A DNA stretch of 64,000 bases from an uncultured Geobacteraceae bacterium (GCA_903901875.1 CAIUSO010000142.1:9836-73835); one strand, 5' to 3'; positions 4,808 to 53,321 are shown, counted from the first letter of the stretch. Notes: generated from the letters alone by a model not told the origin. Made by a program: numbers and translations.

Positions 4808-5011
4808 TCAATAGTGGGGAGGTGGCTCTTCCTGGTCCGGGTCCCGTGACACCGAGGGTGACACGGCGAGAAACTGCTCTTTCAGCAGTGTGAAATCACG
4901 CTTGAGTGCCTCTATGGTGACTTCCTGCCGACAGACAATTTCATTAAGTTCCTGAATGGTGCGCTCCTGCTGCATGAAGCAGAACTCCAGTTCGGTGATG
5001 CGCTCATCCAT
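4808..5011 (-). CDS. slyX: SlyX family protein
   Basis: A 67-aa coiled-coil protein, MDERITELEFCFMQQERTIQELNEIV..., with size and pattern typical of SlyX. Confidence 0.75.
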   Translation of the reverse strand: MDERITELEFCFMQQERTIQELNEIVCRQEVTIEALKRDFTLLKEQFLAVSPSVSRDPDQEEPPPHY

Positions 5012-5013
5012 CT

Positions 5014-5496: not shown

Positions 5497-5660
5497 TGGT
5501 GATACTCCTTATTCGATATGGTATGTGGTTTCGTGACATATTTTCAGCCCACTTGTCAAATGTTATCTCAAAAGACGCTTCAAAATAGAGCTTGTTTGAG
5601 ATGCTATTTTTATGTATTTTAAAAAATTATCAATAAGATGAACTCAAGGGGAGGGAGACG

Positions 5661-5936
5661 ATGAAAATTTCCCGTAGTGACCTGCTCACGGCTCCGTTGA
5701 CAGCCGATGAGATGAAATGGGGGAGCAATCTTGCCGACAACTTGCCGGATGAGGTTGACCTGACATTTGAAGAATTGAAAATACTGACCAGGCTCTCTAT
5801 TCATGAGTGGCCCGATGCCTTGATTCTGAAAGTCAAGGACGCCATCGATGTGGAAGATTTTTTGCAGGAAAACGAGGAATCCATAATAAATCACCCCATG
5901 GGTGACGGAGAAGCTCCTAAGGAGATGTTTCATTGA
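5661..5936 (+). CDS. Hypothetical small acidic protein (91 aa)
   Basis: ATG preceded by GGGGAGGGAG. The stop overlaps the TTG start of the next gene (TTGA at 5933-5936). I recognise no family. Confidence 0.5.
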   Translation: MKISRSDLLTAPLTADEMKWGSNLADNLPDEVDLTFEELKILTRLSIHEWPDALILKVKDAIDVEDFLQENEESIINHPMGDGEAPKEMFH

Positions 5937-7042: not shown

Positions 7043-7047
7043 CTGCC

Positions 7048-15899: not shown

Positions 15900-15941
15900 G
15901 GTGCACAACTCCTGATATATTTAAAAGAAGCAACGACACGA

Positions 15942-19038: not shown

Positions 19039-21372
19039 ATGGCCCCACTCTTTATTGTCGGTACCGGACCCGGTGCCCCCTGTCACCTGACTGATGCCGC
19101 CAAGGATGCCATTGCGGCATCGGATGTTATCGTCGGTTACGGCAGCTACGTCGAGCAGGTACGTCCCCTCTTGGAGGGGAAGCAGATCATCGCCACCGGT
19201 ATGATGCAGGAGGTGCAGCGCTGTCGGGAAGCGATTCGGCTGGCCCGTTCCGGCGAAGCGGTTGCCCTCATTTCCGGCGGAGACTCGGGTATATACGGAA
19301 TGGCCGGACTGGTGCTTGAACTGGTGGAAACTGACAGATGTCAGAATCCGGCCGAACCGACCGTTGATGTAAGGATCATTCCGGGTATTTCCGCAGTTCA
19401 GGCGGCGGCATCACAACTGGGTGCTCCCCTGATGCATGACTTTGCTGTCATCTCTCTTTCCGATCTGCTGACCCCCTGGCCGTTGATACAAACCAGGCTG
19501 GAGGCGGCGGCGCGGGCCGATTTTGTCATTGCCATCTATAACCCCCGCAGTAAAACCCGCAGGACTCAAATAGAGGAGGCGCGCCGGATCATTCTGGCCC
19601 ACCGTTCACCCCTGACGCCTGCGGGGATTGTCCGCAATGCCTGCCGTGAGGGACAGGTCGTTGTGGTGACCACCTTGGGCGAGCTGCTTGACCATGAAAT
19701 CGACATGACCAGTATTGTCCTGGTGGGCAACGCCAGCACCCGCATTGACGGGGAGGGGCGTATGGTTACCCCCCGGGGCTATGCTGCAAAATACGCTGCC
19801 GTTTCTGAAGCGTCCGCTGGTGCGGATGGTGAAGTGGTCCCCCGAAAGCCGGGAGCTGTCATGTTCTGCGGTACCGCTTCAGACGTGGGGAAATCCATTC
19901 TCACCGCCGGGTTCTGCCGTTATCTGGTGAGGCAGGGCATGACCGTAGCTCCTTTTAAATCCCAGAATATGTCGTTAAATTCCTTTGTGACCCCGGAGGG
20001 GGGAGAAATAGGACGAGCCCAGGCGGTTCAGGCCGAAGCGTGCCTTATCCCGCCCCATACCGATATGAATCCGGTTCTCCTTAAGCCCAACTCCGATACC
20101 GGCAGCCAGATCGTGCTGCAGGGACGACCGGTTGCCAATATGTCCGTAACCGAGTATGACCGCTATAAGCCGGTTGCCTTTGAAAAAATTCGGGAAAGTT
20201 TCGAGCGTCTCCGTTCCGGGTACTCGTTTGTTGTTATCGAAGGGGCGGGGAGTATTTCGGAAATCAATCTTCGCAGCAAAGATATTGCCAATATGAAGAT
20301 TGCAGAGCTGGCCGACTGTCCGGTGATTCTGGTGGCCGACATTGATCGGGGTGGGGTCTTTGCCCAGATTGTCGGTACCATTGACCTGCTGGAGCCGGAA
20401 GAACGGGCACGGGTCAAGGGGGTCATCATTAACAAATTCCGTGGTGATGTTACTATTTTGACACCCGGTATCGAGTTTATCGAACAACGGACCGGTGTGC
20501 CGGTTCTTGGCATACTTCCCTGGCTTAAGGATATCCGTCTTCCTGACGAAGACAGCGTGGCACTTGTCCGTCAACGGAGCAGCCGCAGCGCAGAATCGAG
20601 TGATGGCAGGATACGAATCGGCGTCATCAGGCTGCCGAGGATCTCCAATTTTACCGATTTTGAGCCGTTACAGCGGGAAGACGATGTCCAGCTTTCCTAC
20701 ATCGAACAGCCGTCGGAAGTGGCTGGTCTTGATGTGTTAATAATACCGGGAAGCAAGTCAACCATCGCCGATCTTGCTTTCTTGCGGGAGCGGGGACTGT
20801 TTGAGGCGATTCGTACTTTTCCTGGGAAAATTATCGGCATTTGCGGTGGATTCCAGATGCTTGGCACCACCCTGCTTGATCCCCACGGAGTGGAATCCTC
20901 CGTGGCAGAAGCCCGGGGTCTTGACCTCCTTCCGTCCACGACTGAGCTCTTGCCGGAGAAAGCCACCCATCAGGTTCGCGCTCGTCTTACCGAGGCAGGG
21001 CGGATAGTCGCTCCCGAGGGGGAAGGGGAGCTTGTCGGGTATGAAATTCATATGGGTGTGACTACTCTGGCTGGGGGAACGGCACCCTTTTCACGGGTAA
21101 CACGCCGTGGCGACACTCCGGTGTCCATTGAAGAAGGTGCCATCACCTCCGACGGGCGGATTTTTGGCAGTTACCTCCATGGTCTCTGTGATAACGATGG
21201 TTTCCGGAGGAGTTATCTCAATGAAATCCGCCGTGGCAAGGGAATGCCGCTTTCCAGTGGCCCGGTGGTGGCGGTTTCCGATCCCTTCGATCAACTGGCG
21301 CGTCAATTGGAGGAACATCTCAACATGGCTGCCCTTTTGAACATCTGTGGACTGGATAGTGACGGTCGCTGA
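19039..21372 (+). CDS. Fusion of precorrin-3B/cobalt-factor III C17-methyltransferase (CbiH/CobJ-like) and cobyric acid synthase (CobQ/CbiP)
   Basis: The N-terminal 245 aa read FIVGTGPGAPCHLT...VIVGYGSYV...ISGGDSGIYGMAGL (tetrapyrrole methylase). After a roughly 20-aa linker comes MFCGTASDVGKSILTAGFCR...APFKSQNMSLNS...ICGGFQMLG (CobQ with its GATase domain). It is a single uninterrupted 777-aa ORF. Confidence 0.85.
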   Translation: MAPLFIVGTGPGAPCHLTDAAKDAIAASDVIVGYGSYVEQVRPLLEGKQIIATGMMQEVQRCREAIRLARSGEAVALISGGDSGIYGMAGLVLELVETDRCQNPAEPTVDVRIIPGISAVQAAASQLGAPLMHDFAVISLSDLLTPWPLIQTRLEAAARADFVIAIYNPRSKTRRTQIEEARRIILAHRSPLTPAGIVRNACREGQVVVVTTLGELLDHEIDMTSIVLVGNASTRIDGEGRMVTPRGYAAKYAAVSEASAGADGEVVPRKPGAVMFCGTASDVGKSILTAGFCRYLVRQGMTVAPFKSQNMSLNSFVTPEGGEIGRAQAVQAEACLIPPHTDMNPVLLKPNSDTGSQIVLQGRPVANMSVTEYDRYKPVAFEKIRESFERLRSGYSFVVIEGAGSISEINLRSKDIANMKIAELADCPVILVADIDRGGVFAQIVGTIDLLEPEERARVKGVIINKFRGDVTILTPGIEFIEQRTGVPVLGILPWLKDIRLPDEDSVALVRQRSSRSAESSDGRIRIGVIRLPRISNFTDFEPLQREDDVQLSYIEQPSEVAGLDVLIIPGSKSTIADLAFLRERGLFEAIRTFPGKIIGICGGFQMLGTTLLDPHGVESSVAEARGLDLLPSTTELLPEKATHQVRARLTEAGRIVAPEGEGELVGYEIHMGVTTLAGGTAPFSRVTRRGDTPVSIEEGAITSDGRIFGSYLHGLCDNDGFRRSYLNEIRRGKGMPLSSGPVVAVSDPFDQLARQLEEHLNMAALLNICGLDSDGR

Positions 21373-23530: not shown

Positions 23531-26251
23531 CTACCCGGCAATTATGCCTTTCACACCAATAATTTGGGCCTGTTTAACCATGCGTATGACTTCCTCTGGT
23601 GAAATCGGCTTAGCAAGAGCATAGCCTTGAAACTCATGGCATCCTTCACTCTTAAGGAAATTAAACTGGTCAACATCCTCAGCTCCTTCTGCGATTACTC
23701 TCAGATTGAGGTTGCGAGCCATTGCAATAATCGTTCTGGTAATAGCAGCATCATCTTTGTTAACCATGATATCTTTTACAAATGAACGATCAATTTTGAG
23801 ACGATCAATAGGCAACCGTTTTAGATATTCCAGCGAGGAGTAACCGGTGCCAAAATCATCCAGAGCAATGCCTATCCCCACGTTTTTAAACTGCTGGAGC
23901 ACTGAGATGGTTTCTTCAACATGTGACATTAATACGGATTCAGTCAGCTCCAGTTCTAGTAGACCTGGGGGGATGTTGCTCTCACTGATAATGTTTTCAA
24001 CAGTCTCTACAAAATTGCTTTGCGCAAACTGTTTTGCGGAGACATTAACGGCAACACGTAATGATAAACCATCTTCATGGTACCATTTGGCTGCCTGACA
24101 ACAGGCGGTTTTAAGTACCCAGTATCCCAATTTGTTGATCAGCCCTACCTCTTCCGCAATAGAGATAAATTCATTCGGACCTACAACCCCCTTTTGTGGA
24201 TGACGCCATCTGACCAGAGCTTCAACACCGATGATTCTATCGCTGCTGAACTCTGCTTGCGGTTGATATAAGAGGAACAGCTCGTCAGGGATGGCAATAC
24301 GCAAGTCTGCCTCAAAGGTAAAGCGTTCCTGCGTCTGCTGGGCAATATGGGCATCAAAATACTGACAGTTGTTTTTTCCGGCGGCCTTAGCGCGATACAT
24401 GGCCACATCGGCATTCTGAAACAGAACAGCGGCCTCATTGCCATCATCAGGATAGATACATACACCGACGCTCGCTCCAACATGTACTCGAGATCCCTCT
24501 ATCATGATAGGTGCTGACACAGCATCAATTATCGCCCGAGCTATTCGTTTAACCGTGATAGTGTCAGAAATTTCTTCGAGGAGGATAATAAACTCGTCTC
24601 CACCCAAACGCGCAACGGTATCAGTACTGCGTAGGCAACTGACCAGCCGCTTGGAGACTATTTGAAGAAGTTCATCGCCCGCATGATGCCCAAGTGTGTC
24701 ATTTACTTTTTTAAAATCATCAAGATCAACGAGCAGGACTGCCAATTGTCTGCCATTGCGTTCTGCATTCAGTATTGCATGAGAAAAGCGATCATTAAAC
24801 AGCTGGCGATTAGGGAGTCCGGTTAAAAAGTCATAATGCGCAAGATGGTAGATCCGCTCCGAAGACTCTTTCTGCTCGGTAATATCCTCGTTTGTCCCTA
24901 TATAATAGAGGACTTCGCCGGAATTATTGCAAACGGAGGATATATGTAGAAGGCACGCAAATCCATCGCCGTTCTTTTTCCGATTCCATATTTCACCCAA
25001 CCATTCACCATTATTTATTAAGTTTTCCCAAAGCGTTTTATAAAATTCTGTTTCCTGTTTGTTTGATCTAAGAATACGCGGCGTTTTGCCGATTGCCTCC
25101 TCAGGAGAGTAGCCAGTCGCATCGGTAAAATATTTGTTGACCCGAAGAATGATGCCTTGAGGATCTGTTACCAACATGGATTGCCTGCTCTGTTCAAAAA
25201 CCTGCGCCGCAAGATCCAGCTCAGCTTGCTGGTCAATCAGTGCCTGATTTGAAGCCGCTAAAACAGACATATTGTGTATTCCATTTTTCCAGTCGCAATA
25301 TATCCAACGTGCAGCATAGAGCGTACTGAAGCAGAATATTGTTACGAGCAAGATGTTTTTGATCTGGTCACGGCACCAGGCTGATAGATATTCTTTCTTT
25401 GAGAGTCCAACTATAAGGTGAAAAGGAAACTTAGATAGTTTATTGTAATAGTATGTTCGCTCGACGTGGTCTGTAAGGGGAATGGCAGTGTAATAAACGT
25501 CGTCCCGTCCAGATGCCAAAATACGCTTCAAGCTGTCCGATAAATCCTTTTTCCCTACGGCACTCGCTCCTCCAGGCAGAACAGGATAGTGTGTAACAAT
25601 ACCAAGATCTTCGCCCCGTAAGGAAATTACACCATTTTTACCCAGTTTAATGGTTGAAAAAAGTTCATAAAAGGAGTCCAGATAAATTCCGGCTGCAACT
25701 ATTCCACCAAATGAACCATCAGGTAAACTAAAGCGACGGGACAGAAATATGGTCCACTTTCCTGTTGTACGTCCAATGAGGGGTTTTGAAATGACCAGCT
25801 GTGCGTTCGGATCATCATGCTGACGAATGAAATAGTCGCGATCACCAATGTTTATAGGTGGGCCGGCCCCCTCGTCAAACAACATGTTACCCCGACAGTC
25901 AGCTAGTCTTATAATGTCAACAAAAGGAATTTGTTCATGGATTTGTTTCAGATGAACAATGGTTGAATGCTCATCAATTCCAGTGGCCGTTTGTCTTTCG
26001 TAAATTTCATCTACCGCCCAACGAAGCGCAATATCAATTTTTTCGAATTTATTTATAAGAATCTGCTCAATGGCATTTGAAACATTTTTTGTGGAAATCT
26101 GAGCCTGCTCCTCATAGTTGGTCTTGGATTCGTACGCAGAGTGACACACTATCAGGATAACAAACAGGTCGACCAATAGTACTGCCCCGGCTAAGCGTGA
26201 GAGAAATGTCTTGGTAGACATTAAATAAGTTGTATTTCGTAATTTCATCAA
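23531..26251 (-). CDS. Membrane sensor with a periplasmic Cache-like domain, PAS, GGDEF and EAL domains
   Basis: N-terminal TM segment, about 270 aa of periplasmic region, a second TM segment, then PAS (TDATGYSPEEAIGK). Then RLGGDEFIIL (GGDEF) and EALVRW...ELTES...DDFGTGYSSL...KIDRSF (EAL). Confidence 0.9.
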   Translation of the reverse strand: MMKLRNTTYLMSTKTFLSRLAGAVLLVDLFVILIVCHSAYESKTNYEEQAQISTKNVSNAIEQILINKFEKIDIALRWAVDEIYERQTATGIDEHSTIVHLKQIHEQIPFVDIIRLADCRGNMLFDEGAGPPINIGDRDYFIRQHDDPNAQLVISKPLIGRTTGKWTIFLSRRFSLPDGSFGGIVAAGIYLDSFYELFSTIKLGKNGVISLRGEDLGIVTHYPVLPGGASAVGKKDLSDSLKRILASGRDDVYYTAIPLTDHVERTYYYNKLSKFPFHLIVGLSKKEYLSAWCRDQIKNILLVTIFCFSTLYAARWIYCDWKNGIHNMSVLAASNQALIDQQAELDLAAQVFEQSRQSMLVTDPQGIILRVNKYFTDATGYSPEEAIGKTPRILRSNKQETEFYKTLWENLINNGEWLGEIWNRKKNGDGFACLLHISSVCNNSGEVLYYIGTNEDITEQKESSERIYHLAHYDFLTGLPNRQLFNDRFSHAILNAERNGRQLAVLLVDLDDFKKVNDTLGHHAGDELLQIVSKRLVSCLRSTDTVARLGGDEFIILLEEISDTITVKRIARAIIDAVSAPIMIEGSRVHVGASVGVCIYPDDGNEAAVLFQNADVAMYRAKAAGKNNCQYFDAHIAQQTQERFTFEADLRIAIPDELFLLYQPQAEFSSDRIIGVEALVRWRHPQKGVVGPNEFISIAEEVGLINKLGYWVLKTACCQAAKWYHEDGLSLRVAVNVSAKQFAQSNFVETVENIISESNIPPGLLELELTESVLMSHVEETISVLQQFKNVGIGIALDDFGTGYSSLEYLKRLPIDRLKIDRSFVKDIMVNKDDAAITRTIIAMARNLNLRVIAEGAEDVDQFNFLKSEGCHEFQGYALAKPISPEEVIRMVKQAQIIGVKGIIAG

Positions 26252-26326
26252 TCAAATCTCCAACGTACACGAAACAAGAGGGTTTACATGATAGCCGACG
26301 ATATTATTGAGGACGTGTGCCACGGT

Positions 26327-29041
26327 TCAGACTGCAACGGATATGTAGGCAGAATACTCGCGATCATACTCCAACATATGTTTTTTTATAACTTCGTAAA
26401 CAAGAAACTCAAAAACGTCTCCAACATGAATTTCATTTGAGTTGAAATCTTCGGCCAGATCAAGAGCTCTTTTTTTGAGTTTTTCATGTTCGATGGCATG
26501 TTGCTTCACGAAAGGATACCCTATTGATTCGAGAATATGTTCCTCATCAATAAAGTGTTTCGTAATATCATCAAGCAGTTGAGAAATAATATTTGAAATT
26601 TCTTCCTTCGTGCTGGATTTAATAATTACATGTAATAGCTTGTTTGAATTAAGAAACAGAGTCTTATGCTGGTCATCAATCAACTCATTCCCCAGAGTAA
26701 ATGACTCCTGCCAGACAAGTTGCACGAAATTATCGTCTAACTGCTCAGGGTAAACATCATTGTACTCTATACGGTTACGCCCAAGAGCTTTGGCTTTATA
26801 AAGCAGTTCGTCTGCACGGGCTACAATTTCTGAAGCTGATTCTTCATTATGGCATACTATTGTAACAACCCCCAAACTGGCTGTTACACAATTCGCTGTA
26901 TCAGACCATTCATGGGGTATAGCAAGATTAATGATGCCTTGACGAATCCTTTCAGCGATAAGCAGGGCCCCGTGCTGGTCAGTATCAGGAAGGATACACG
27001 CGAACTCTTCACCGCCATACCGGGCGGCCAGATCACCGGGCCGAACAGCACTCTTATCAATCACTCCAGCAAGCTGTTGCAGACACTTATCGCCACTCAC
27101 ATGGCCATAGTTGTCGTTGAAAAGCTTGAAACAATCAATATCAAGCATTATGAGTGATAATTCTGATTCGGTACGAGCAAGTCGAGAATATTCTCTGAGC
27201 AGAACATCATCAAACTGACGACGATTAGCTATGCCGGTCAAACCATCAGTTGTGCTCAGCGAAACAAGTCTGCTGTTTGCCTCTCCTAACTCCGTATTCA
27301 AGTGTTCAAGCTCTTGCTGCACCTGTTTTATCTCGGTAACATCGGTTACCAATACATAAAATCCGACAATTTGGCCGTTATACAGGTCTGGGATATAGCT
27401 GGACTGGGAGTGGCGAATACCACCGCCATCGGGAACTGGTATGGCGCGCTCGAAGTGCTGAATCTCACCACGCAATGCCCCCTCAATATATGCCAGGTTA
27501 AGCTGATAGCGCTCTTCGCCAATCACTTCCCGGATATGCATACCAGGCATGGAGTCCGGATCAATGCCAAACCATTCACGGTATGCGTGGTTGCCGAAGC
27601 GGCACCGAAGGTCGTGGTTCCAGTAACCGATCATGGCTGGCATATTGTTGAGTATTAACTTCATATCCCGCTCGCGCTGCTCAAGCTTTTGATACGTCTG
27701 TTTGAGATTGGAAATATCAATGTGGGTGATAACAGCACCTCCGTTTTCCGATCGAAGTGGTTCAACCTTCATCAAGAACCAGCGCTTTACAGCTGGAGAA
27801 TGACACGGGTATTCCAGCGAAAATGAATCCGCCTTACCGGCAAGCACCGAACTGATACCATCCAGTGCTTCCAGCGCTTGATCAGAATAATCACCGTAAC
27901 TCCCACGGCATACATCGAGGTAACTGGTTCCCTCTCTGTAATGACGGGGAAGATTGCCATCTGCCGTGCGATTGGTCTCGGCAAAGTTGGTCCATGCATC
28001 ATTGACGGATACAATAACTCCGCTCTTATCAAGTATTGCTACGGGCGAATTAATTGAATCAAGTAATGCCCGGTTATATTCGGCAGTTCTGGCTAACTCG
28101 GTGCTACGTTGCAGCATTCTTCTGGTGATGAATATGCCTGATGAAGAGAGGAGCAGGTACAGCGACAGCTGTATAGCATAGTTGATTTTCCAGCGTACAA
28201 GCACTTCATTCAGATTACGACTGGCACCAACGATAAAATGTTTATCGACGCGAAGGTCCTTTGAAGAGTTGGTAATATAGGCAAAAACACGGTAATCGCC
28301 GGTCGTAGCACTCTGGCCACTCTGGATGGAAGCCGATTTGCCCTCTTGTACGTGCCGATACATGAGAGAACCTGGCTTCATAAGATTTTTACCGACAACG
28401 GAATTATTATCGTCCGGTATTGCAGTAAAAATAGTGCCTTCGGAATGGATCAGCGCAATCCGGTTGTCCGGGGCAAAAATGGTTGATTTAAGCAGAGTCT
28501 GAAAATAGTCCTGAGAGAGAGAAACAGTAATGACCCCTTTGAATTCACCCTGTGTTCCTTCGATTGGCCTTGTAATATTCATTATATAAGGGCCAAGAAC
28601 GGATTTGAACGGTGGCGACAGAAAGAGCATATTTTTGTCTGGAGCGTTTCGCGTTGCGACGAAGTAGTCACGATTACTGAAGTCTAATCCCACAAGCTCT
28701 TCCCGGTTAGAGTGGATGACGCTCCCCCACTCATCGATAACGAGAAGTGAACGTACACCAGGCATTCGGTTGCATTGGGTTTTCAGAAAGCTGTCAAACT
28801 TGTTGGAGGGAATATCGTTTAACTCGTGCGTAATATATTCGAGGGCCAATCTGGAGGTTAACAGATTTGAAGTGAGGTTTTCATCAACAACTCGTGCCTG
28901 AGCCATCAGACGTTCTTCGAGCTGGTGAACTTCCCAACGGTAATCAGCAATGGAGCGTACCACCAGTAGCAGTGCTATGGTTGCCATAACTGAGAGCACT
29001 AAAGCCCATATAGTTCGATGCGAGGAATTTGTAACTTTCAT
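26327..29041 (-). CDS. Membrane sensor with a Cache-like domain, two PAS domains, GGDEF and a C-terminal hemerythrin-like domain
   Basis: RYGGEEFACIL (GGEEF active site) with a candidate RxxD I-site motif. The C-terminal 130 aa read LVWQESFTLGNELIDDQHKTLF...HFIDEEHIL...HAIEHEKL...HMLEYDREY, matching the hemerythrin His/Glu/Asp ligand pattern. Confidence 0.85.
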   Translation of the reverse strand: MKVTNSSHRTIWALVLSVMATIALLLVVRSIADYRWEVHQLEERLMAQARVVDENLTSNLLTSRLALEYITHELNDIPSNKFDSFLKTQCNRMPGVRSLLVIDEWGSVIHSNREELVGLDFSNRDYFVATRNAPDKNMLFLSPPFKSVLGPYIMNITRPIEGTQGEFKGVITVSLSQDYFQTLLKSTIFAPDNRIALIHSEGTIFTAIPDDNNSVVGKNLMKPGSLMYRHVQEGKSASIQSGQSATTGDYRVFAYITNSSKDLRVDKHFIVGASRNLNEVLVRWKINYAIQLSLYLLLSSSGIFITRRMLQRSTELARTAEYNRALLDSINSPVAILDKSGVIVSVNDAWTNFAETNRTADGNLPRHYREGTSYLDVCRGSYGDYSDQALEALDGISSVLAGKADSFSLEYPCHSPAVKRWFLMKVEPLRSENGGAVITHIDISNLKQTYQKLEQRERDMKLILNNMPAMIGYWNHDLRCRFGNHAYREWFGIDPDSMPGMHIREVIGEERYQLNLAYIEGALRGEIQHFERAIPVPDGGGIRHSQSSYIPDLYNGQIVGFYVLVTDVTEIKQVQQELEHLNTELGEANSRLVSLSTTDGLTGIANRRQFDDVLLREYSRLARTESELSLIMLDIDCFKLFNDNYGHVSGDKCLQQLAGVIDKSAVRPGDLAARYGGEEFACILPDTDQHGALLIAERIRQGIINLAIPHEWSDTANCVTASLGVVTIVCHNEESASEIVARADELLYKAKALGRNRIEYNDVYPEQLDDNFVQLVWQESFTLGNELIDDQHKTLFLNSNKLLHVIIKSSTKEEISNIISQLLDDITKHFIDEEHILESIGYPFVKQHAIEHEKLKKRALDLAEDFNSNEIHVGDVFEFLVYEVIKKHMLEYDREYSAYISVAV

Positions 29042-29150
29042 GGATACCTCAGACGCTATCTATTCTGTGTAAATCAAAAGTAAACTTCCAATTTGCATTC
29101 AGTACATATCAGGATCCTGTCAAGTGTACTGAGGCAAATAGCTGATGTGA

Positions 29151-30473
29151 TTAATGGCCAATTGCAAGGCCCAGTAAAAACTTTGCTACCGGGATGCACT
29201 GAACTTTGCCACTGACTGTCTTGATTACATCTTCATAATCATTGGTCACAAGTATTAATTCCGCTGATTCATACTCTTCTGTCAATTTATTGAAGCAGGC
29301 CATTTCGCGTTCTGGAATACTGGTTACTGAAACGTCTTCATACCAGACCTGGATTCGCTTGCTGATCCTCATTCCTTCCTTTACCAGAAAGTCAGTATCA
29401 TTCCCGTTGGTGTGATAATAGACCTCTTCATGGTGTCGTTTCAGGTGGCAAAAGACTACATTCTCTACTAACCAGCCCATATCTTCGGAAAAAGCAAAGG
29501 CAACCCGGTTACGCAGTCCGGTGTCAATGGCGTACGGTTTGAACCCGGCTCGCATGGTATTCTTGAGCGAATAGGAAAACATCTGCAGCTGAAACAGCAG
29601 ATAACTCTCCATGATAGCCGAAACATAATTCTCGGTTTTATCCTGGGAGATGGTGAAATTGTTCTTCAACTTAGTGATACTGGTTAGTTTTGCGACGTTG
29701 GTCAACAGATATACAGCCAGATTACGCAGGTTTGAGACATCTCTGATTTCGTAGCGGGTAACGATGTCACGATAAAGGATATCCTCGAAATAGCTTTTAA
29801 GGAGGAGCTCTTTATCCTCAGCTGCGGTTCTGAGGACAACTTCCGGGAATCCACCGTACATTAAGTATTCGTTAAATGATTTTCTGATGGTCGCTCTCCG
29901 AGTCGTATAGTCAAGCTCGGTATTGATTTCCAGGTTGTTGAAGCGCAGATACTCCTGAAATGAGAGTGGGAATATTTCAAAAGACACATGTCTGCCGGTC
30001 AGTTTAGTGCCAATCTCGCGGGAGAGCATCTGTGATGATGAACCGGTGACGAATATCTTAATCTCCTCTGTTTCACTGCGCCCCCGTACCCAGCTCTCCC
30101 AACCTGGAATATTTTGAACTTCATCAATGAAAAGCCAACATTTGCCTTCTGGTTGAACACGTTCACGATAGGTACGGTATATATGCTCAAGCAGTTCTAC
30201 CGAGTATTCCGACGAAAAGAGCGGCTCCTCCAGGTTGACGCGTAGTAGAGAGGTCGGCTGCACATTGCGGGACAGAAGCTCTCGAATCACTTGTGCCATA
30301 ATGGTTGACTTCCCACATCGGCGGACTCCTTTGAGGACAACCACTTCTTTAGAATCAAGTTGCCTGAGACAGGTAGGGAGAATGTCTCTTTTTATACCGG
30401 CTTCAATGGCTCCCGTAGTCCAGTAGTGATTGTAGGAAGAAATGATTTCGAAAATTTTAGACGATTGCATCAT
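29151..30473 (-). CDS. AAA+ ATPase of the AAA_14/DUF4143 type
   Basis: VVLKGVRRCGKSTIM (Walker A), WLFIDEVQ (Walker B), 440 aa, with architecture typical of this orphan ATPase family. Confidence 0.8.
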   Translation of the reverse strand: MMQSSKIFEIISSYNHYWTTGAIEAGIKRDILPTCLRQLDSKEVVVLKGVRRCGKSTIMAQVIRELLSRNVQPTSLLRVNLEEPLFSSEYSVELLEHIYRTYRERVQPEGKCWLFIDEVQNIPGWESWVRGRSETEEIKIFVTGSSSQMLSREIGTKLTGRHVSFEIFPLSFQEYLRFNNLEINTELDYTTRRATIRKSFNEYLMYGGFPEVVLRTAAEDKELLLKSYFEDILYRDIVTRYEIRDVSNLRNLAVYLLTNVAKLTSITKLKNNFTISQDKTENYVSAIMESYLLFQLQMFSYSLKNTMRAGFKPYAIDTGLRNRVAFAFSEDMGWLVENVVFCHLKRHHEEVYYHTNGNDTDFLVKEGMRISKRIQVWYEDVSVTSIPEREMACFNKLTEEYESAELILVTNDYEDVIKTVSGKVQCIPVAKFLLGLAIGH

Positions 30474-32160: not shown

Positions 32161-32321
32161 GGCACACCTCCCAAATAGGTAACTCAAAACATATGGGTGA
32201 ACTTTACCGTATTACGCCGCGCTTGAACATATAAAAGTTACGATTATGATAAAAATTTACCCCATGGGACGCTATTAAACGTTATTGTTGCTATCAAGCG
32301 GTGCGACCGTTATTCTAGCCC

Positions 32322-32351
32322 TTGACATTTATTGCCGATCACAGCTAATGT
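32322..32351 (+). promoter_or_regulatory. Candidate sigma-70 promoter for the riboswitch leader
   Basis: TTGACA at 32322-32327, then 17-18 nt, then CTAATG/TAATGT. Confidence 0.4.
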
Positions 32352-32370
32352 GAAAATAATAAAACATTGT

Positions 32371-32506
32371 CTCTCTTTGTAAATGGCAAACTCAGGGTAA
32401 CCTGGGGACGCAAAGCCACGAGTCCGGTAAACGGATAGTCGGGCTGTCTGGAAAGAGGGTTATCTCTGACCCTTCTTAAGATGTATTTAGAAGGGTTTTT
32501 TATTTT
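32371..32506 (+). ncRNA. GEMM-I (c-di-GMP-I class) riboswitch: aptamer plus terminator expression platform
   Basis: 32385-32417 reads GGC AAAC TCAGG GTAA CCTGG GGACGCAAA GCC. This has the same layout as the Vc2 core GGCAAACCAUUCGAAAGAGUGGGACGCAAAGCC (5-bp helix, GNRA loop). A second hairpin lies at 32418-32446. Candidate P1 is CTCTCTTT (32371-78) pairing with AAAGAGGG (32452-59). The terminator follows. Confidence 0.8.
32469..32506 (+). terminator. Intrinsic terminator of the riboswitch expression platform
   Basis: ACCCTTCT ... AGAAGGGT has an 8-bp stem and is followed by TTTTTTATTTT. It ends 20 nt before the ATG at 32527. Confidence 0.7.
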
Positions 32507-32526
32507 ACTGAGCGGAGCAGCCAAAC

Positions 32527-35500
32527 ATGAAAACCATTGCACGCCCGCACCGGGTGGCGTTATTCAGTAACGTCGTGTTCCTGTTCTGCCTGTTTTTTAT
32601 TATCGCAGTAGCGGATTCCCGCGCCACAGAGACCGTGACGGAGGGCATTGCGCGTAAAGTTGTGGCAGTAATCCCCGCAGATTTGCCTCCAACCTATTTT
32701 CTGGATAAAAGTGGCAGACCGGCAGGTTTTGCCATCGATGTTATGAACGAACTGGGGCAGAGAAGCGGCCTGACCATTGAATATATAGTTACCAAGGGGT
32801 GGGATGAAGCTATTCAGCTCGTGCTGGATGGGAAGGCGGATATTATTCCGAGTCTGACCATCAATGAACAACGCACGAAGATCCTTGCTTTTACCAAAAC
32901 GATTGATTCACTGGTAATCAGTCTGGTTGTGACCAGTGGAAACACCGGGGTGCAGGGGATCACCCCGGGGCTTACCATCGGGGTGCTCAACGGGAGTACT
33001 CCCCATAATTTTCTTAAGAAAAACAGTTCTATTACTCTTGAAACCTATAATGATCTCAATTCCATGATCTTTGGTCTCCTCGCCGGCCATGTGGACGGTA
33101 TCGTTTCACTGACAAACTCTATCATGAAACTGGCAATGGATGCAGGCATTGACGAAAAGCTCAAGATTGTCGGCGAACCGGTCATAGAGGCAAAGCGTGC
33201 CGTTGCAACCAGAAAAGAAGAGACCGAGCTGCTTAACCGGTTAAACAGTGAAATCGATGTATTTGTTGATTCGCCTGAATATCAAAAACTCTATGTTAAA
33301 TGGTATGGTAAGCCGTCCCAGTATTGGAACGGCACGCGCATGGCCGTGTTGATTGTCGGGCTGTTGGTTGTTCTGACAACCGCCTTTTTGATCTGGCGCA
33401 AACGGTCTGTACAACTACTCTTGAACACCCGCACATACACAAGCAAACTGGAGCAACGTCTCTCTCTTGCCACATCTGCTGCCGAAATTGGTGTCTGGGA
33501 CTGGCTTGTCCCGGAAAATGTGCTGATCTGGGATGAGTGGATGTACCGTCTTTATGGTGTGAAGGAGGAGGATTTTTCCGGGGCCTATGAGGCCTGGGTG
33601 AAGGGACTTCATCCCGATGATGTTGAGCGGTGTGAGGCGGGAATCAGAGAGGCCCTGGTCGGGGAAAATGAATACCATATTGAATTTCGCGTCGTGTGGC
33701 CCAATGGTACCGTGCGGCATATAAAGGCGTTTGGTCTTGTTGAGAGGGATGTACAGGGAGCACCCCTGCGCATGATCGGCGTCAACTACGATATTACTAA
33801 TCTCAAACAGGCAGAATCGGCCCTTTTGCAGGCAAACGCCAAGACCACTGCCATCAATGAAACGCTGAACGCCATTATATTCACCATGTCAGACTGGGTC
33901 TGGGAATTGAACAGTGAAGGTGTTTATACCTATTCGTCTCCCCATGTTGAAGCGGTTTTGGGGTATAAACCTGAGGAGCTTATCGGTAAAAAATATCATG
34001 ATTTCATGGTGCCGGAGGAGGCTGAACGGCTTGGCTGGATCATAGACCGGGTGGTTCAGGGGAAAGAGAATGTCCGTAATCTGGAAAAGTGGAGTACCCA
34101 TAAGGATGGGCACCAGGTATTGCTGAATACCAATGCCGTTCCCGTATGTGACGAGTCGGGAAATTTGTGCGGTTATCGGGGTGTGGGGCAGGATATTACC
34201 GAGAACAGACGGATGGCCAGGGAGCTGCAGCGCAGCCACAATGAACTTGCTGCCACACTTGATACTATTCCTGATTTGCTGTTTAAGGTAGACAGGGAGG
34301 GTACTTTTTTACAAGTACATGCAGCCAATGAGAGTATGCTACTGATCCCCAAAACAGAACTGCTGGGTAAAAAACTTAAAAATCTGTTACCTCCCGAGGC
34401 GGTGGCAACAATATCTGCCGCCCTGAAGCAGGCCGAGGAAAGGGGCACGGACTACGGTCGTATCATGATGCTTCCTTTGGAGCAGGGGGAATACTGGTTC
34501 GAACTATCGGTGGCGTTTAACAATAAAATAGCCAATGAAGCCCCCTATTTCATCGTACTCTCCCGGGATGTCAGCGAGCGGAAACGCAATGAGCTGGAGC
34601 TCGAACGGGCTCGTTCGACCGCCGATATTGCCAATCAGGCCAAAAGCCGCTTTCTTGCCAATATGAGCCATGAAATCCGTACTCCCATGAATGGCATTAT
34701 CGGCATGGGATATCTGGCACTGGAAGAGGATTTATCCGATAAGGCATATGACTACTTGAACAAAATAACCTACTCCGCCGTGTCACTCATGGGCATTTTG
34801 AATGATATACTCGATTTTTCTAAAATCGAGGCCAATATGCTTGCCATTGAAGAAGTAGAATTCTCCACAGTCAAATTGCTCGAAAATATAAGCACGTTGC
34901 ACAGAATTGCTGCCGAGAACAAGGGGCTTGAGTTGATTCTTCCACACCCGGAATCTCTCCCCGCTCTTCTGATTGGTGATCCCTTACGCGTGCAGCAGAT
35001 CATCAACAATCTGATCAATAACGCAATCAAGTTCACTTCTGCAGGGTCGGTAACCTTGACAGCAGCGGTTAACGAGGAGAATGGCGGTGCTGATCGTCTG
35101 AAAATTGCGTTTACCGTACGGGACACCGGTATGGGCATTTCCCCTGAACAGCAGGAGTTACTATTTCTCCCCTTTACTCAGTCTGATACGTCTACTACCC
35201 GCGAGTTTGGCGGTACGGGCCTCGGACTCTCCATTTGCCAAAGTCTGGTTCATCTGATGGGGGGTGAGCTCACCGTATCAAGTGTTCCCGGAGCAGGAAG
35301 CAGCTTCAGTTTTTCGGTCTGGTGTGGTCGTCGTTCCGGTCAGGTTACCATTGAGGGTGACACTCTGTCAGAAAAAAAATGTACCGCCATACAGAATAGC
35401 AGTGTGCTCCCCGTTGGTGATGTCGCACCCACACATTCCCCCCATCGGATGAAACAGGCCTATCCCCAACGGGATAAATTTGCCGGTGTGCGTGTGCTGC

Positions 35501-36483
35501 TGGTTGATGACAATGCCATCAATACCCAGTTGGCATCGGAACTGCTTGAGCGGGTCGGTGTTACCGTTACCACGGCTGCCAACGGACGTGAAGCTGTGGC
35601 AAAAGTAACCGAAGGGGAGGGGGCATTTGATCTGGTACTGATGGACGTGCAAATGCCGGTGATGGATGGCTATACGGCCGCACGACAGATCAGGGAACGA
35701 TGGAGTGCTTCCCGGTTGCCCATAGTTGCCATGACAGCACATGCCATGTCGGAAGAACGTGAACGGTGTCTTGACTCCGGCATGAATGATCTGCTTACGA
35801 AACCGGTCAACCCGGATAGTCTGTTCAAAATGGTTGCCCTGATGACGGAACGTCACCCTCTGCCAGAATCGGTGTGCCGCTCTTCAGTGCCACCATCTTC
35901 ACTAACCACACTGCCGGTGGTTGATTTTGACGATGTGCTGAAACGGTGTATGGGGGAAACATATCTCATGATGAGAACGCTGACCAGCTTTTCAGAGGGG
36001 GGGCAGAAAACTGTCGATGATTTGCTTGTCGCACTGGAACGGGAGAAGCGGGATGAGATCAAAATACATGGCCACACATTAAAGGGGCTTTCCGGGAATA
36101 TCGGGGCTTTCCCGCTGAATTCGTTGTGTAAAGAGCTGGAGGCCCGGCTTCAGAGTGGGGGGACTTGCGAAGAACTCCATGATTTTGAAGGAACGATACG
36201 GGAGGAGATGGCGCGGATAATGGACGTAATTAAAGCTGCTTCCACCATGAATGGGGGGACAGCAGTGGAGCACGGTGCTGATGGTACAGTGACGGAAACG
36301 GTTGCAGCACTTCGTACTGCGCTGGAGGATATGGATTCAAAAGCCTTGCAATTGGCCCAATCCCTTGCTGGTCAGTTATCTGCTTCCACCGAGCTTGCCA
36401 GGCTCCTCCGTCAGGTTAATGCCATTGATTTTGACGGTGCGTTAGTGACACTTGATTCGATATCTCTTGAAAATGCGGGGTAA
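32527..36483 (+). CDS. Hybrid sensor histidine kinase: periplasmic solute-binding (SBP_bac_3-like) domain, PAS domains, HisKA/HATPase, receiver and Hpt
   Basis: Signal/TM segment, then an amino-acid-binding-like domain (IPSLTINEQRTKILAFT) and PAS repeats. Then [25 protein letters not shown], the receiver LLVDDNAINTQL...DLVLMDVQMPVMDG and the Hpt motif HGHTLKGLSGNIGA. Confidence 0.9.
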   Translation: MKTIARPHRVALFSNVVFLFCLFFIIAVADSRATETVTEGIARKVVAVIPADLPPTYFLDKSGRPAGFAIDVMNELGQRSGLTIEYIVTKGWDEAIQLVLDGKADIIPSLTINEQRTKILAFTKTIDSLVISLVVTSGNTGVQGITPGLTIGVLNGSTPHNFLKKNSSITLETYNDLNSMIFGLLAGHVDGIVSLTNSIMKLAMDAGIDEKLKIVGEPVIEAKRAVATRKEETELLNRLNSEIDVFVDSPEYQKLYVKWYGKPSQYWNGTRMAVLIVGLLVVLTTAFLIWRKRSVQLLLNTRTYTSKLEQRLSLATSAAEIGVWDWLVPENVLIWDEWMYRLYGVKEEDFSGAYEAWVKGLHPDDVERCEAGIREALVGENEYHIEFRVVWPNGTVRHIKAFGLVERDVQGAPLRMIGVNYDITNLKQAESALLQANAKTTAINETLNAIIFTMSDWVWELNSEGVYTYSSPHVEAVLGYKPEELIGKKYHDFMVPEEAERLGWIIDRVVQGKENVRNLEKWSTHKDGHQVLLNTNAVPVCDESGNLCGYRGVGQDITENRRMARELQRSHNELAATLDTIPDLLFKVDREGTFLQVHAANESMLLIPKTELLGKKLKNLLPPEAVATISAALKQAEERGTDYGRIMMLPLEQGEYWFELSVAFNNKIANEAPYFIVLSRDVSERKRNELELERARSTADIANQAKSRFLANMSHEIRTPMNGIIGMGYLALEEDLSDKAYDYLNKITYSAVSLMGILNDILDFSKIEANMLAIEEVEFSTVKLLENISTLHRIAAENKGLELILPHPESLPALLIGDPLRVQQIINNLINNAIKFTSAGSVTLTAAVNEENGGADRLKIAFTVRDTGMGISPEQQELLFLPFTQSDTSTTREFGGTGLGLSICQSLVHLMGGELTVSSVPGAGSSFSFSVWCGRRSGQVTIEGDTLSEKKCTAIQNSSVLPVGDVAPTHSPHRMKQAYPQRDKFAGVRVLLVDDNAINTQLASELLERVGVTVTTAANGREAVAKVTEGEGAFDLVLMDVQMPVMDGYTAARQIRERWSASRLPIVAMTAHAMSEERERCLDSGMNDLLTKPVNPDSLFKMVALMTERHPLPESVCRSSVPPSSLTTLPVVDFDDVLKRCMGETYLMMRTLTSFSEGGQKTVDDLLVALEREKRDEIKIHGHTLKGLSGNIGAFPLNSLCKELEARLQSGGTCEELHDFEGTIREEMARIMDVIKAASTMNGGTAVEHGADGTVTETVAALRTALEDMDSKALQLAQSLAGQLSASTELARLLRQVNAIDFDGALVTLDSISLENAG

Positions 36484-36491
36484 GGCTACCA

Positions 36492-39359
36492 ATGCCAGAA
36501 GTGACTGAAAAAATATTGCTTGTTGATGACTCTGTTATCGGGTTACAGACGTTGAGTGGTGCTCTTTCCGATGAGTATACCGTGTACCTTGCGACAAGTG
36601 GTGAAGTGGCACTTCGCCTGGCTGCTGCCAAACGCCCCGATCTTATTCTCCTCGATATTATCATGCCTGAGATGGACGGATATGAAGTCTGCCGTCGTCT
36701 GAAACAGCATGCCGATCTGGCGGATATTCCGGTAATCATGATTTCAGCACTGGATCATATAGATGACGAAATCCGCGGGTTGGAACTTGGTGCGATCGAT
36801 TTTATTTCCAAACCCTACAACATGGGGCTGGTTCGTATGCGGATACGCAACCAGATGCTGCTGAAACGGCAGAAAGAACAGATACTTCTTGATAAAGATG
36901 AGTTGAGGAATGAACGGCAGCGACTGTCGTATGTGATTGAGGGAACCCGTGCCGGCTCATGGGAGTGGAACCTGGAAACGGGGGAGGTTATTGTCAACGC
37001 CAGGTGGGCCCAGTTAATCGGCTATACACAAAAGGAGTTATCTCCCCTTACCTTTGGGAAATGGCAATTACTCTGCCATCCCGACGATGCTCAACGCAGT
37101 AACGCACAACTGGAAGCCCATGTACAAGACGAAGTGGATTACTACGAATGCGAAATGAGAATGCGCCACAGGGATGGCCATTGGGTGTGGGTACTGTCCC
37201 GGGGGAAAATAGCCTCTTGGAAAGAAGACGGAAAGCCGTTGTGGATGTTTGGTGCCATTACCGATTTGTCGGTCCGCAAGAATCTGGAAGAGAAGTTGCA
37301 AGATTCGCGAAAACGACTTCGTGACCTGTTTGAATCAACGCTCGACGCGATACTCATTATCGATTCAGAGAAAATTCTTAATTGCAATCCGGCGGCGGTT
37401 CGGCTCTTTGGTGCATGTTGCCGTGAAGATATCATCGGTCGGCGTCCAAGTGATCTTTCCCCCGAGCTGCAGTTTGATGGTGAAGACTCATTGAGTAAGG
37501 CGGAACGCCTGCTTGCCGGTGCGTTTTCAGAAGGGCTCCAGCACTTTGAGTGGCTTCACACCCGACTTGATACCGGGGGTACATTCATGGCAGAAGTACA
37601 CCTTCTGCCCATGGAGTTGGAACAACAGATGGTTCTGTCTGCCACGGTACGTGATATTTCCGCCCAGAAGCGGCTTGAAGCAGAGAATGCGCTGGCCCAT
37701 AAAGAGGTTGCGGAAAAGGCCCTCCAATACCAACAACTCTCTGAACGTTTTGCCTTTGCCACTGAAGCTGCCAAATGCGGTATCTGGGAATATGATGTGT
37801 CAACCGGTTATATGAGCTGGGATCGGCAGATGTACTTACTTTTTGGTCTGGAACGTGCTTTTTCGGAAGAGGTCTGTCACGTATTGCAGGGGATGGTTCA
37901 GCCGGAAGATCTTCTGCGTTTGAACGATGAGTTTGAGCGTGCACTGAAAGGTGAAGCTGCTTTCAATTCGGTTTTTACTGCTAACTGGACCAATGGTTCC
38001 CCCCACACGCTGAAAGCGGTTGCCGACGTAAAATATGATGAAGACGGTGCTCCCGCGAGAGTGATAGGAACCTGCTGGGATTGTACGGTATTCACCGAGG
38101 CGGAGAACAGCCTGCTTACCTTGGCGACCGAACTCGACCATATTAATATCGAACTGGCGGTCTCGTTGCAAAAAGCCGAGGAAGCCACCAGGGCCAAGAG
38201 TTATTTTTTATCCACCGTCAGCCATGAGATACGGACTCCGATGAATGGCGTAATTGGCCTCACAAGTCTGCTGCTCGATACCGAATTGTCTGCCGAACAA
38301 CGTGACTATGCCGAATCGGTAAGCCGAAGTGGTCATCATTTGTTGGAGTTGATTAATGACATTCTTGATTTTTCCAAGACTGAATCGGGAAAGATGGAGT
38401 TGGAACTGGTTGATTTTAACTTGAAACTTGTGGTTGACGATACTCTGGTGCCGCTTTCCACTTTGGCAAAGAAAAAAAATATCAGATTATCCAGCTCGAT
38501 TGCTTTGGAAGTACCAGCCTATCTCCATGGTGATCCAAGCAGGGTCAGGCAGATTGTGACAAACCTGACCGGTAATGCTCTGAAGTTTACAAAGGAGGGT
38601 GAGGTTTCCCTTACGGTGTCCATCGACCGTGAGGAGGGGGGTGATACGTACCTTCTGTTTGAGGTTAAAGATAGCGGGATTGGCATTCCGGAGTCGAGAC
38701 TGGCGGCCATTTTTGAACCTTTTACCCAGGAGAACAGCGCCACATCAACTACTTATGGGGGGACCGGCCTGGGATTGGCAATATGCAGGCAACTTGCCGA
38801 ATTGATGGGGGGCACCATTGGGGTGAAAAGTAAACGGGGCGAGGGGTCCACGTTTTGGTTTACCACCCGTTTCAGGCGCTGTACCCCTGAAGAAATCGCA
38901 GCGTTACATGGACCTGAGGTGGCAGTGGAATGTAGCGAAACCTCTCCTTCAGTTGCCAAAGAGAAGGTTCGAATCCTTTTGGCCGAAGATAATATTATTA
39001 ACCAGAAGGTGGCTAAAGGTATGTTACGCAGTATCGGGTATGACAAAGTTGATGTGGTCGCAAATGGCTATGAGGCATTACAGGCCCTTGAAACCATACC
39101 GTATGATCTCGTACTGATGGATTGTCAGATGCCCGAGATGGATGGGTTTGAGGCAACGGCCACCATCCGTGATTCCCAGTGGAAAATCCTTGATCCCACT
39201 ATCCCGATTATTGCCATGACGGCAAACGCCATGAGTGAAGATCGTGATGAGTGTTTGAAAGCCGGGATGGATGACTTTTTGACCAAACCGGTAAAAAAGG
39301 AAGTTATCGCGGCAATGCTTGATAAGTGGCTGAAGAGAGGCAGATGTGCCCATGACTGA
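36492..39359 (+). CDS. Hybrid sensor kinase: N-terminal receiver, PAS domains, HisKA/HATPase and C-terminal receiver
   Basis: ILLVDDSVIGLQ...DLILLDIIMPEMDG, PAS repeats, [25 protein letters not shown] and ILLAEDNIINQKV...DLVLMDCQMPEMDG. It starts 8 nt after the previous kinase. Confidence 0.9.
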   Translation: MPEVTEKILLVDDSVIGLQTLSGALSDEYTVYLATSGEVALRLAAAKRPDLILLDIIMPEMDGYEVCRRLKQHADLADIPVIMISALDHIDDEIRGLELGAIDFISKPYNMGLVRMRIRNQMLLKRQKEQILLDKDELRNERQRLSYVIEGTRAGSWEWNLETGEVIVNARWAQLIGYTQKELSPLTFGKWQLLCHPDDAQRSNAQLEAHVQDEVDYYECEMRMRHRDGHWVWVLSRGKIASWKEDGKPLWMFGAITDLSVRKNLEEKLQDSRKRLRDLFESTLDAILIIDSEKILNCNPAAVRLFGACCREDIIGRRPSDLSPELQFDGEDSLSKAERLLAGAFSEGLQHFEWLHTRLDTGGTFMAEVHLLPMELEQQMVLSATVRDISAQKRLEAENALAHKEVAEKALQYQQLSERFAFATEAAKCGIWEYDVSTGYMSWDRQMYLLFGLERAFSEEVCHVLQGMVQPEDLLRLNDEFERALKGEAAFNSVFTANWTNGSPHTLKAVADVKYDEDGAPARVIGTCWDCTVFTEAENSLLTLATELDHINIELAVSLQKAEEATRAKSYFLSTVSHEIRTPMNGVIGLTSLLLDTELSAEQRDYAESVSRSGHHLLELINDILDFSKTESGKMELELVDFNLKLVVDDTLVPLSTLAKKKNIRLSSSIALEVPAYLHGDPSRVRQIVTNLTGNALKFTKEGEVSLTVSIDREEGGDTYLLFEVKDSGIGIPESRLAAIFEPFTQENSATSTTYGGTGLGLAICRQLAELMGGTIGVKSKRGEGSTFWFTTRFRRCTPEEIAALHGPEVAVECSETSPSVAKEKVRILLAEDNIINQKVAKGMLRSIGYDKVDVVANGYEALQALETIPYDLVLMDCQMPEMDGFEATATIRDSQWKILDPTIPIIAMTANAMSEDRDECLKAGMDDFLTKPVKKEVIAAMLDKWLKRGRCAHD

Positions 39360-49400: not shown

Positions 49401-49676
49401 TGCAAAAGAGTTGCTCGGCACGCTGCTCGCCTGGTACTGGCACGGGCTGAAAACGCCACTCCGTTTTTTTCCTGCAACCTCCCTGGAGTTTGTATCGACG
49501 GGCGGTAATCTGGAGAAAGCACGGAAAAAATGGCAAAGTGGCTTTATGTTCACCGGTGAGGAAGACGACCCGTATTACCGGCTCTGCTTCGGCCAGGAAG
49601 ATGATCCGCTCACCGGTGATTTTAGCCAGCTGGCCGATGAATTGCTTTCACCTCTGCTTGCCCACAGAGTAAAGGA

Positions 49677-49680
<4 letters not shown>
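46486..49680 (+). CDS. recC: Exodeoxyribonuclease V gamma subunit
   Basis: 1064 aa. MSLRIYTSNQMEKLVEALA...VVQSKGMQRWL is typical of the RecC N-terminus. The stop overlaps the recB ATG (ATGA). Confidence 0.9.
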
Positions 49681-53318
<3,638 letters not shown>

Positions 53319-53321
53319 AAC

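Follow-up and report, generated by a model that had tools for sequence, protein, structure and literature searches.

A GEMM-I-fold leader with a C92U binding pocket and a predicted OFF switch upstream of a two-kinase operon in a Geobacteraceae genome

Which cyclic dinucleotide, if any, is read by the leader of a two-kinase operon in an uncultured Geobacteraceae bacterium, and in which direction would it switch the genes behind it? The locus lies in a single stretch of 64,000 nucleotides (GCA_903901875.1, CAIUSO010000142.1:9836-73835; hereafter the window). An earlier note on this DNA had placed a GEMM-I second-messenger riboswitch with a terminator ahead of two tandem hybrid histidine kinases, had called it an OFF switch, and had left the ligand between c-di-GMP and 3',3'-cGAMP.

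An Rfam 15 scan of the whole 64 kb window (cmscan, gathering thresholds) returned one match, at 32376-32452 on the plus strand, to RF03168 (68.1 bits, E 1.2e-12), with an alignment that covers the full model. One further family of CL00126, the c-di-GMP-I clan, also passed its own threshold there, the clan filter showing the best family only. A permissive rescan of 32200-32600 gave no extra matches except noise, all with E > 0.5. By covariance-model score (68.1 bits against a threshold of 65.9 for RF03168), the element belongs to the c-di-GMP-I clan; the family claim of the earlier note stands at that level and falls for RF01051 as best family, since RF03168 scores best. The aptamer core reported earlier is present at 32385-32417, where the sequence reads GGCAAAC, a 6-bp helix with a GUAA loop, and GGACGCAAAGCC. 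The MFE fold of 32362-32512 (-48.9 kcal/mol, z = -3.45; none of 200 shuffles folds as well) comprises P1, the GUAA-loop hairpin, a hairpin at 32414-45, and a strong hairpin at 32468-97 followed by U6-A-U4. In Vc2 numbering, which was anchored with PMC5049679 and PMC3764141, the parts of the aptamer are as follows.

32371-32379, plus strand: P1 5' strand CUCUCUUU with G14, the closing base of P1; 32371-78 pairs with 32452-59 in the MFE fold.
G32379-C32448, plus strand: closing pair G14-C93, placed by homology to Vc2 (PMC3764141, PMC5049679) and by the C13-G14 / C93-G94 pattern in 60 relatives.
32380-32385, plus strand: J1/2, UAAAUG, with G20 as its last base (32385), placed by the cmscan alignment; 6 nt lie between G14 and G21, as in Vc2 and the relatives.
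32386-32411, plus strand: first hairpin (P2/P1b of Vc2), with G21-C46, C22-G45 and C44 (32409), from the cmscan alignment and MFE fold.
32412-32414, plus strand: J2/3, AAA, that is A47 (32412), A48 and A49, invariant in the alignment of relatives.
32414-32445, plus strand: second hairpin (P3 of Vc2), including G83 (32438), the partner of C44, from the cmscan alignment, MFE fold and relatives.
32446-32448, plus strand: J3/1, G91-U92, with C93, from the cmscan alignment; UGUC here is homologous to UACC in Vc2 and UGCC in Geobacter.
32452-32459, plus strand: P1 3' strand AAAGAGGG, from the MFE fold, preceded by a 3-nt bulge at 32449-51.

The second hairpin and the P1 candidate that had been picked out by eye are thus both recovered. 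The stem of the first hairpin is 6 bp long (32391-96 with 32401-06) and is capped by the GUAA tetraloop at 32397-32400. All bases with tertiary or stacking roles (PMC3764141) are in place, namely A18 (A32383), the C44-G83 pair (C32409/G32438), A47-A49 (A32412-14) and the GNRA loop. One irregularity counts against our best explanation: positions 13 and 94 of P1 form a U-U mismatch, and the bulged A95 of most relatives is missing.

Compensatory change was assessed in an alignment of 60 U92-type aptamers. The pairs named above are standard in 93.6% of cells against 75.4% in shuffles, and 169 cells carry double changes against 51 in shuffles. When the partners are slid by one to three columns, pairing falls to 31-48%. 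Every pair of the first stem (6/6) covaries; the lower helix of the second hairpin is paired in 99.8% of cells, an invariance that is partly imposed by the search pattern. P1 and two hairpins in a three-way junction with covariation, as expected of RF01051, are therefore seen in the MFE fold and in the 60 relatives. We conclude that the 5' leader of the kinase operon contains a well-formed cyclic-dinucleotide aptamer of the GEMM-I fold, within the c-di-GMP-I clan.

The binding pocket departs from the canonical one at a single base. As read from the sequence, it is G20/A47/U92, a natural C92U variant with the canonical G at position 20. C92U is tolerated as a natural variant of c-di-GMP-I; Smith et al. 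reportedly found in 2010 that G20A and C92U are the natural variants met most often and that c-di-GMP is still bound by both, by C92U through a wobble pair. The assignment follows from the register. In Vc2, P1 is closed by G14-C93, J1/2 runs from C15 to G20, the next helix is closed by G21-C46, A47 stacks between the two bases of the ligand, J3/1 contains C92, and C44 is the partner of G83 (PMC5049679, PMC3764141). The corresponding positions in the window are G14 = 32379, G20 = 32385, G21-C46 = 32386 with 32411, C44 = 32409 and A47 = 32412 and, on the 3' side, G83 = 32438, U90 = 32445, 91 = G32446, 92 = U32447 and C93 = 32448. The same register fits the 60 relatives, with C13-G14-(6 nt)-G21 on the 5' side and U90-G91-U92-C93-G94-A-A on the 3' side. 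Set against RF01051, the window has the expected G at position 20 (G32385) and lacks the expected C at position 92 (U32447); the A20 and C92 that define GEMM-Ib (c-AMP-GMP) are both absent. The earlier note had located its uncertainty about the ligand in a purine of the 5' junction. The alignment to Vc2 makes that purine the canonical G20; the deviation, missed at the time, is U92.

The G20/U92 pocket is not peculiar to this locus. A metagenome scan with the pattern GCAAA...GACGCAAAGCCACG...CGGGYUGUC, position 20 being left free, found 62 loci; there are 64 pattern matches with U92, counting the window and the two contigs that duplicate it, and of these 60 have G, 3 have A and 1 has U at position 20. 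The pattern used for the genome scan, GACGCAAAGCC...GGGYTGTC, was too loose, and among at least 119 stretches it gave at least 27 full-motif matches at 22 or more loci. Among the genome-scan matches listed, G20/U92 occurs in Geobacter, Geopsychrobacteraceae, Bdellovibrionales, Myxococcales, Solirubrobacterales, Chloroflexia, Nitrospirae and others. Because G20 predominates among U92 matches and the genome-scan matches are spread so widely, we regard G20/U92 as a recurrent natural pocket across many phyla. Four of the genome-scan matches listed (L023, L028, L069 and L100) were rejected as U92 aptamers, being actually C92 with a chance UGUC downstream. A scan of viral contigs for the U92 share of GEMM-I yielded 2 real aptamers among 120 stretches, too few for a frequency. 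The genes that follow other U92-type aptamers encode a multiheme cytochrome, an RHS protein, subtilases, a rhomboid protein, a HisKA_3 kinase and a PAS protein.

Several loci carry more than one aptamer. In L174, two GEMM-I aptamers (404-480 and 558-632) stand in tandem about 80 nt apart. Solirubrobacterales MAGs have series of two or three U92-type aptamers at about 900-nt intervals, each preceding a short ORF; serial or tandem loci include L019 (128-233, 959-1049, 1893-1990), L056 and L061.

The genes under the leader were identified with Pfam, as were two genes for cyclic-dinucleotide turnover nearby.

32527-36483, plus strand: gene 1, a hybrid histidine kinase of 1318 aa, SBP_bac_3-PAS-PAS-HisKA-HATPase_c-REC-Hpt.
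36492-39359, plus strand: gene 2, 955 aa, REC-PAS-PAS-HisKA-HATPase_c-REC.
23531-26251 and 26327-29041, opposite strand to the leader: Cache-PAS GGDEF genes, about 3-9 kb away.

Both the tandem kinases and the neighboring Cache-PAS cyclase/phosphodiesterase genes had been called in the earlier note and are borne out. The kinase genes are 8 nt apart and are therefore probably cotranscribed. The nearest homolog of the first kinase (P0002) is just 54% identical to it. The second has an ortholog (P0242, 79% identical) beside glgC in the closest relative (sample ERZ1426815; GlgC 97% identical), where the spacer between glgC and the ortholog is 528 nt and the SBP-domain kinase is absent. Two further contigs (L120, L121) have the same sequence as the window across the leader, and an Rfam scan found no GEMM aptamer at a paralogous kinase locus (L124) in the same MAG. 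The divergent gene upstream of the leader is glgC, whose product is 88-93% identical to proteins of Geobacter pelophilus, Geobacter sp. OR-1, Trichlorobacter, Oryzomonas and Geobacteraceae MAGs; given these identities and the presence of the kinase gene on contigs of MAG GCA_903944105.1, the window comes from a Geobacteraceae genome. As listed, the glgC ORF starts at TTG 32187 and encodes 422 aa. The homologs have 413 aa, and GGGAGG precedes an ATG at 32160, which is therefore the probable true start.

The earlier note had suggested a feedback wire between these GGDEF/EAL genes and the leader. Between the leader and the GGDEF genes lie glgC and an ATPase gene, and the GGDEF genes are part of a strain-variable insertion. 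This block (23531-30473) holds a GGDEF-EAL gene, a dCache-PAS-GGDEF-hemerythrin gene and an AAA_14/DUF4143 ATPase gene, and sits between an aminotransferase-cobD-cobQ block and glgC. It looks like a strain-specific insertion of about 7.5 kb, because glgC abuts aminotransferase-cobD-cobQ in related Geobacteraceae contigs (L187, L188, L189). The window also contains cheA (14064-15908), a sigma-54 activator gene (16736-18154), a fused precorrin methyltransferase/cobQ gene (19039-21372) and a complete recC-recB-recD operon (46486-55139). The Rfam scan found no cobalamin riboswitch in the 64 kb.

One of the loci rejected as a U92 aptamer is a homolog of the window leader. L028, from an uncultured Geobacteraceae MAG, has its leader at 2175-2310 and a gene at 2358-7655. 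Its aptamer is identical to that of the window at 57 of 70 positions between G14 and C93, and both stems show compensatory changes, C-G to A-U at 32393/32404 and G-C to A-U at 32426/32432 in window coordinates. Its pocket is A20/C92, the classical cGAMP type. The downstream gene encodes a 1765-aa CheB-CheR-PAS-HisKA-HATPase-REC-REC protein. The earlier note had thought kinase targets unusual for this class; given the L028 gene, together with the HisKA_3 kinase and PAS genes behind U92-type aptamers, control of sensor kinases by the GEMM-I class is not unusual.

What, then, does the G20/U92 pocket bind? In the canonical aptamer, G20 recognizes the alpha guanine of c-di-GMP by a Hoogsteen-edge contact, and the beta guanine is Watson-Crick paired to C92 (PMC6140456, PMC5888326). 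In Vc2, the C92U change weakened the response to c-di-GMP in vivo and left it in place, and G20U/C92U abolished it (bioRxiv 10.1101/617340). Because G20 is intact and all the stacking and tertiary bases are present, c-di-GMP is the default ligand, and we consider it, with moderate confidence, the most likely one. It would be recognized through the Hoogsteen contact of G20 and a G-U wobble with U92, probably with a lower affinity than that of a C92 aptamer; U92 removes the Watson-Crick contact to the beta guanine, so that the affinity for c-di-GMP may be too low to matter. In both GGDEF genes of the window, the canonical GHxxGD residue stands where the cGAMP-making Hypr enzymes have Ser (PMC8835794), and one of the two has an RxxD I-site.

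An alternative is that the same RNA, with the same OFF mechanism, responds to 3',3'-cGAMP, or to cGAMP and c-di-GMP alike. The dinucleotide would then sit in an orientation opposite to that in GEMM-Ib, its G facing G20 at the alpha site and its A Watson-Crick paired to U92 at the beta site. The host lends this reading some weight, being one of the Geobacteraceae, in which cGAMP is the ligand of most GEMM-I aptamers; of the 17 GEMM-I riboswitches in G. sulfurreducens, most sense 3',3'-cGAMP via A at position 20 (PMC8835794, PMC6456294). So does the homologous L028 leader (57/70 in the core), which differs at both ligand-reading positions (A20/C92) and keeps the platform. U also pairs better with A than with G, and an engineered G20A/C92U aptamer binds c-di-AMP (PDB 3MUV, as cited in PMC7288161), which shows that U92 can read adenine. 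However, G20/U92 is found across Actinomycetota, Chloroflexota, Planctomycetota, Nitrospirota and other phyla, where nothing in our analysis points to cGAMP; no cGAMP binding by a G20/U92 pocket is reported in the literature that we reached; and the nearby GGDEF genes encode canonical diguanylate cyclases. We therefore consider this alternative unlikely. Its more specific form, in which G20/U92 would be a mirror-image cGAMP sensor built on the scaffold of A20/C92 Geobacteraceae leaders, with an OFF switch shutting the phosphorelay operon as the dinucleotide rises, we consider more doubtful still.

The second part of the question concerns direction, and for c-di-GMP or any other ligand it would be decided downstream of the aptamer, where the following elements were identified along with a candidate promoter upstream.

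32322-32351, plus strand: candidate sigma-70-type promoter, TTGACA (32322-27), an 18-nt spacer and TAATGT (32346-51), read from the sequence.
32453-32477, plus strand: antiterminator hairpin, 32453-62 with 32467-77, U32473 bulged; the MFE structure at transcript ends 32478-32490.
32468-32506, plus strand: intrinsic terminator, stem 32468-76 with 32489-97, inner pairs 32478-79 with 32486-87, loop 32480-85, from the sequence and MFE fold.
32514-32529, plus strand: Shine-Dalgarno GGAG (32514-17), nine bases upstream of ATG 32527, from the sequence and ORF call.

The candidate promoter has a perfect -35 and a weak -10 and is absent from the promoter scanner list; transcription from it would start near 32355-60, some 10-15 nt before P1. 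On the minus strand, a sigma-70-like site (TTTACA-16-TATTAT, 10/12 matches; 32356-32383) overlaps the 5' side of the aptamer and could be the divergent glgC promoter, in which case two transcription units would share DNA. The terminator that the earlier note had put 20 nt before the start codon is there, its tail U6-A-U4 running to 32506, 20 nt before ATG 32527. A simple terminator scanner did not list it, probably because of a U-U mismatch inside the stem. Both the Shine-Dalgarno sequence and the ATG come after the terminator, and neither is sequestered; control should therefore be purely transcriptional, and no translational control is expected.

We folded growing transcripts from 32362 stepwise, and three states followed one another. 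Transcripts that extend up to 32470 fold with P1 as the MFE structure (-36.3 kcal/mol). At ends 32478-32490 the antiterminator takes over as the MFE structure, at -39.7 and -41.7 kcal/mol compared to -36.3 and -37.3 with P1 forced, and so beats P1 by 3.4-4.4 kcal/mol. From 32497 on, P1 together with the terminator is best (-48.6, -48.9 kcal/mol, compared to -45.9 with the antiterminator forced, a difference of about 3 kcal/mol). The competition arises from near-copies: the P1 3' strand AAAGAGGGU and the terminator 3' arm AGAAGGGU compete for the pyrimidine arm ACCCUUCU, and the antiterminator (32453-62/32467-77) excludes both P1 and the terminator. The OFF call had been based on the P1 3' strand pairing with the 5' arm of the terminator; in these folds that pairing is real and longer than first described. 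An antiterminator of this kind is what an OFF riboswitch calls for, and the stepwise folding yields it computationally; the competition between P1, antiterminator and terminator thus supports the OFF prediction, as a prediction.

We propose that bound ligand would lock P1 (32371-79 with 32448 and 32452-59). Locked P1 would leave the pyrimidine-rich segment 32468-77 free to pair with 32489-97, so that the terminator forms and transcription stops before the kinase genes. With no ligand, the P1 3' strand would pair with 32467-77 once that segment is transcribed, giving the antiterminator and read-through. The leader would thus be a kinetic OFF switch, in which unlocked P1 is displaced during the 20-nt interval before the terminator is able to form. 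A transcriptional OFF switch on the two-kinase operon is the most likely behavior predicted by these folds.

The homologous leader is built in the same way. L028 has a purine-rich P1 3' strand AAAAGAGGGUU, a spacer, a pyrimidine-rich arm GCCCUUCU, a 3' arm GAAGGGU and a U tract, and in stepwise folding it passes through the same P1, antiterminator and terminator states as the window leader. The conservation of the window leader rests on this one paralogous example.

The aptamer could also be real and the switch ON or lacking, the leader being a constitutive attenuator, a 5' processing signal or a site of ligand-favored read-through. P1 and the terminator coexist in the full-length MFE fold, where thermodynamics alone forces no choice between them, and the characterized Geobacter GEMM-Ib elements are ON switches (PMC6456294); the OFF direction predicted here is the opposite, which counts against our best explanation. 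Against an ON switch or none, the P1 3' strand is separate from the terminator and complementary to its 5' arm, an arrangement typical of OFF switches; at the decisive transcript lengths the MFE structure is the antiterminator; and L028 has kept the design despite its sequence changes. On balance, we judge an ON switch or no switch to be very unlikely. Taken as a whole, the explanation that we prefer, a C92U GEMM-I leader that would turn its two-kinase operon OFF in response to c-di-GMP, is one that we advance with moderate confidence.

The Rfam label itself suggests another ligand. RF03168 is c-di-GMP-I-UAU, a pocket variant within the clan, which Weinberg et al. 2017 reportedly put forward as a candidate for a different, unidentified signaling molecule. 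The label does not track the pocket. Relatives that share the G20/U92 pocket, in an Rfam scan of the genome and metagenome aptamers, have RF01051, RF03167 or RF03168 as best family, unrelated to their pocket bases, and L028, with A20/C92, also scores best as RF03168 (66.8 bits). In the window, A47 and U92 agree with RF03168 (A32412, U32447), and model position 10, consensus U and equivalent to position 20, aligns to G32385. We conclude that the label records likeness of the backbone (the GUAA loop and the short GCCACG...CGGG hairpin) and is not diagnostic of the pocket. The sole true U20/A47/U92 aptamer among the 64 pattern matches is L163 (1842-1921), whose P1 and flanks are common to a large soil group with G20 or A20 at the same place. 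An orphan UAU ligand was considered and set aside as the main reading, given the G at position 20 and a model, RF03168, that is not pocket-specific. That the window holds a true c-di-GMP-I-UAU member sensing the ligand of that class is highly improbable: RF03168 does score best (68.1 bits against 65.9), U92 and A47 fit the class and the backbone is near the model consensus, but the conserved U is G here, A20/C92 (L028) and several G20/U92 aptamers are likewise best as RF03168 with other G20/U92 aptamers going to RF01051 or RF03167, the genuine U20 aptamer L163 itself scores just 72.0 bits, and G20U, which on top of C92U kills c-di-GMP binding in Vc2 (bioRxiv 10.1101/617340), is absent from the window. 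What probability remains beyond c-di-GMP, cGAMP or a dual ligand, and the orphan ligand falls to a non-responsive element.

Among known systems, the leader resembles RF01051 and its Vibrio cholerae prototype Vc2 in its three-helix junction, GNRA tetraloop hairpin, GCAAAC...GGACGCAAAGCC core, G14-C93 closing pair, G20, A47-A49, the C44-G83 inter-helix pair and control via P1 (PMC3764141, PMC5049679). Unlike Vc2, it has U92 for C and G91 for A, a GUAA loop, a short second hairpin, no 11-nt receptor, and a 3-nt UGG bulge in place of the bulged A95. RF03168 (c-di-GMP-I-UAU) provides the best covariance model and shares the backbone, A47 and U92; in contrast to that class, position 20 of the window is G and not U, the score is 2 bits over threshold, and the model also captures non-UAU pockets. 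With the Geobacter GEMM-Ib elements (Gs1761 / pgcA) the leader has family, fold, G91 and terminator-based control in common (PMC6140456, PMC6456294), yet those are A20/C92 and ON whereas the window is G20/U92 and predicted OFF.

As one more GEMM-I riboswitch, already detectable by Rfam models, the locus adds little. It does serve as a worked example that the variant labels within the clan, RF03167 and RF03168, do not report the binding-pocket bases, so that an automatic annotation as c-di-GMP-I-UAU would mislead. If the model holds, the leader would tie a cyclic-dinucleotide signal directly to the expression of two-component phosphorelay proteins. The best lead lies in the two homologous leaders, in the window and in L028, which share an expression platform and differ at both ligand-reading bases, and which form a natural experiment on the retuning of cyclic-dinucleotide specificity.
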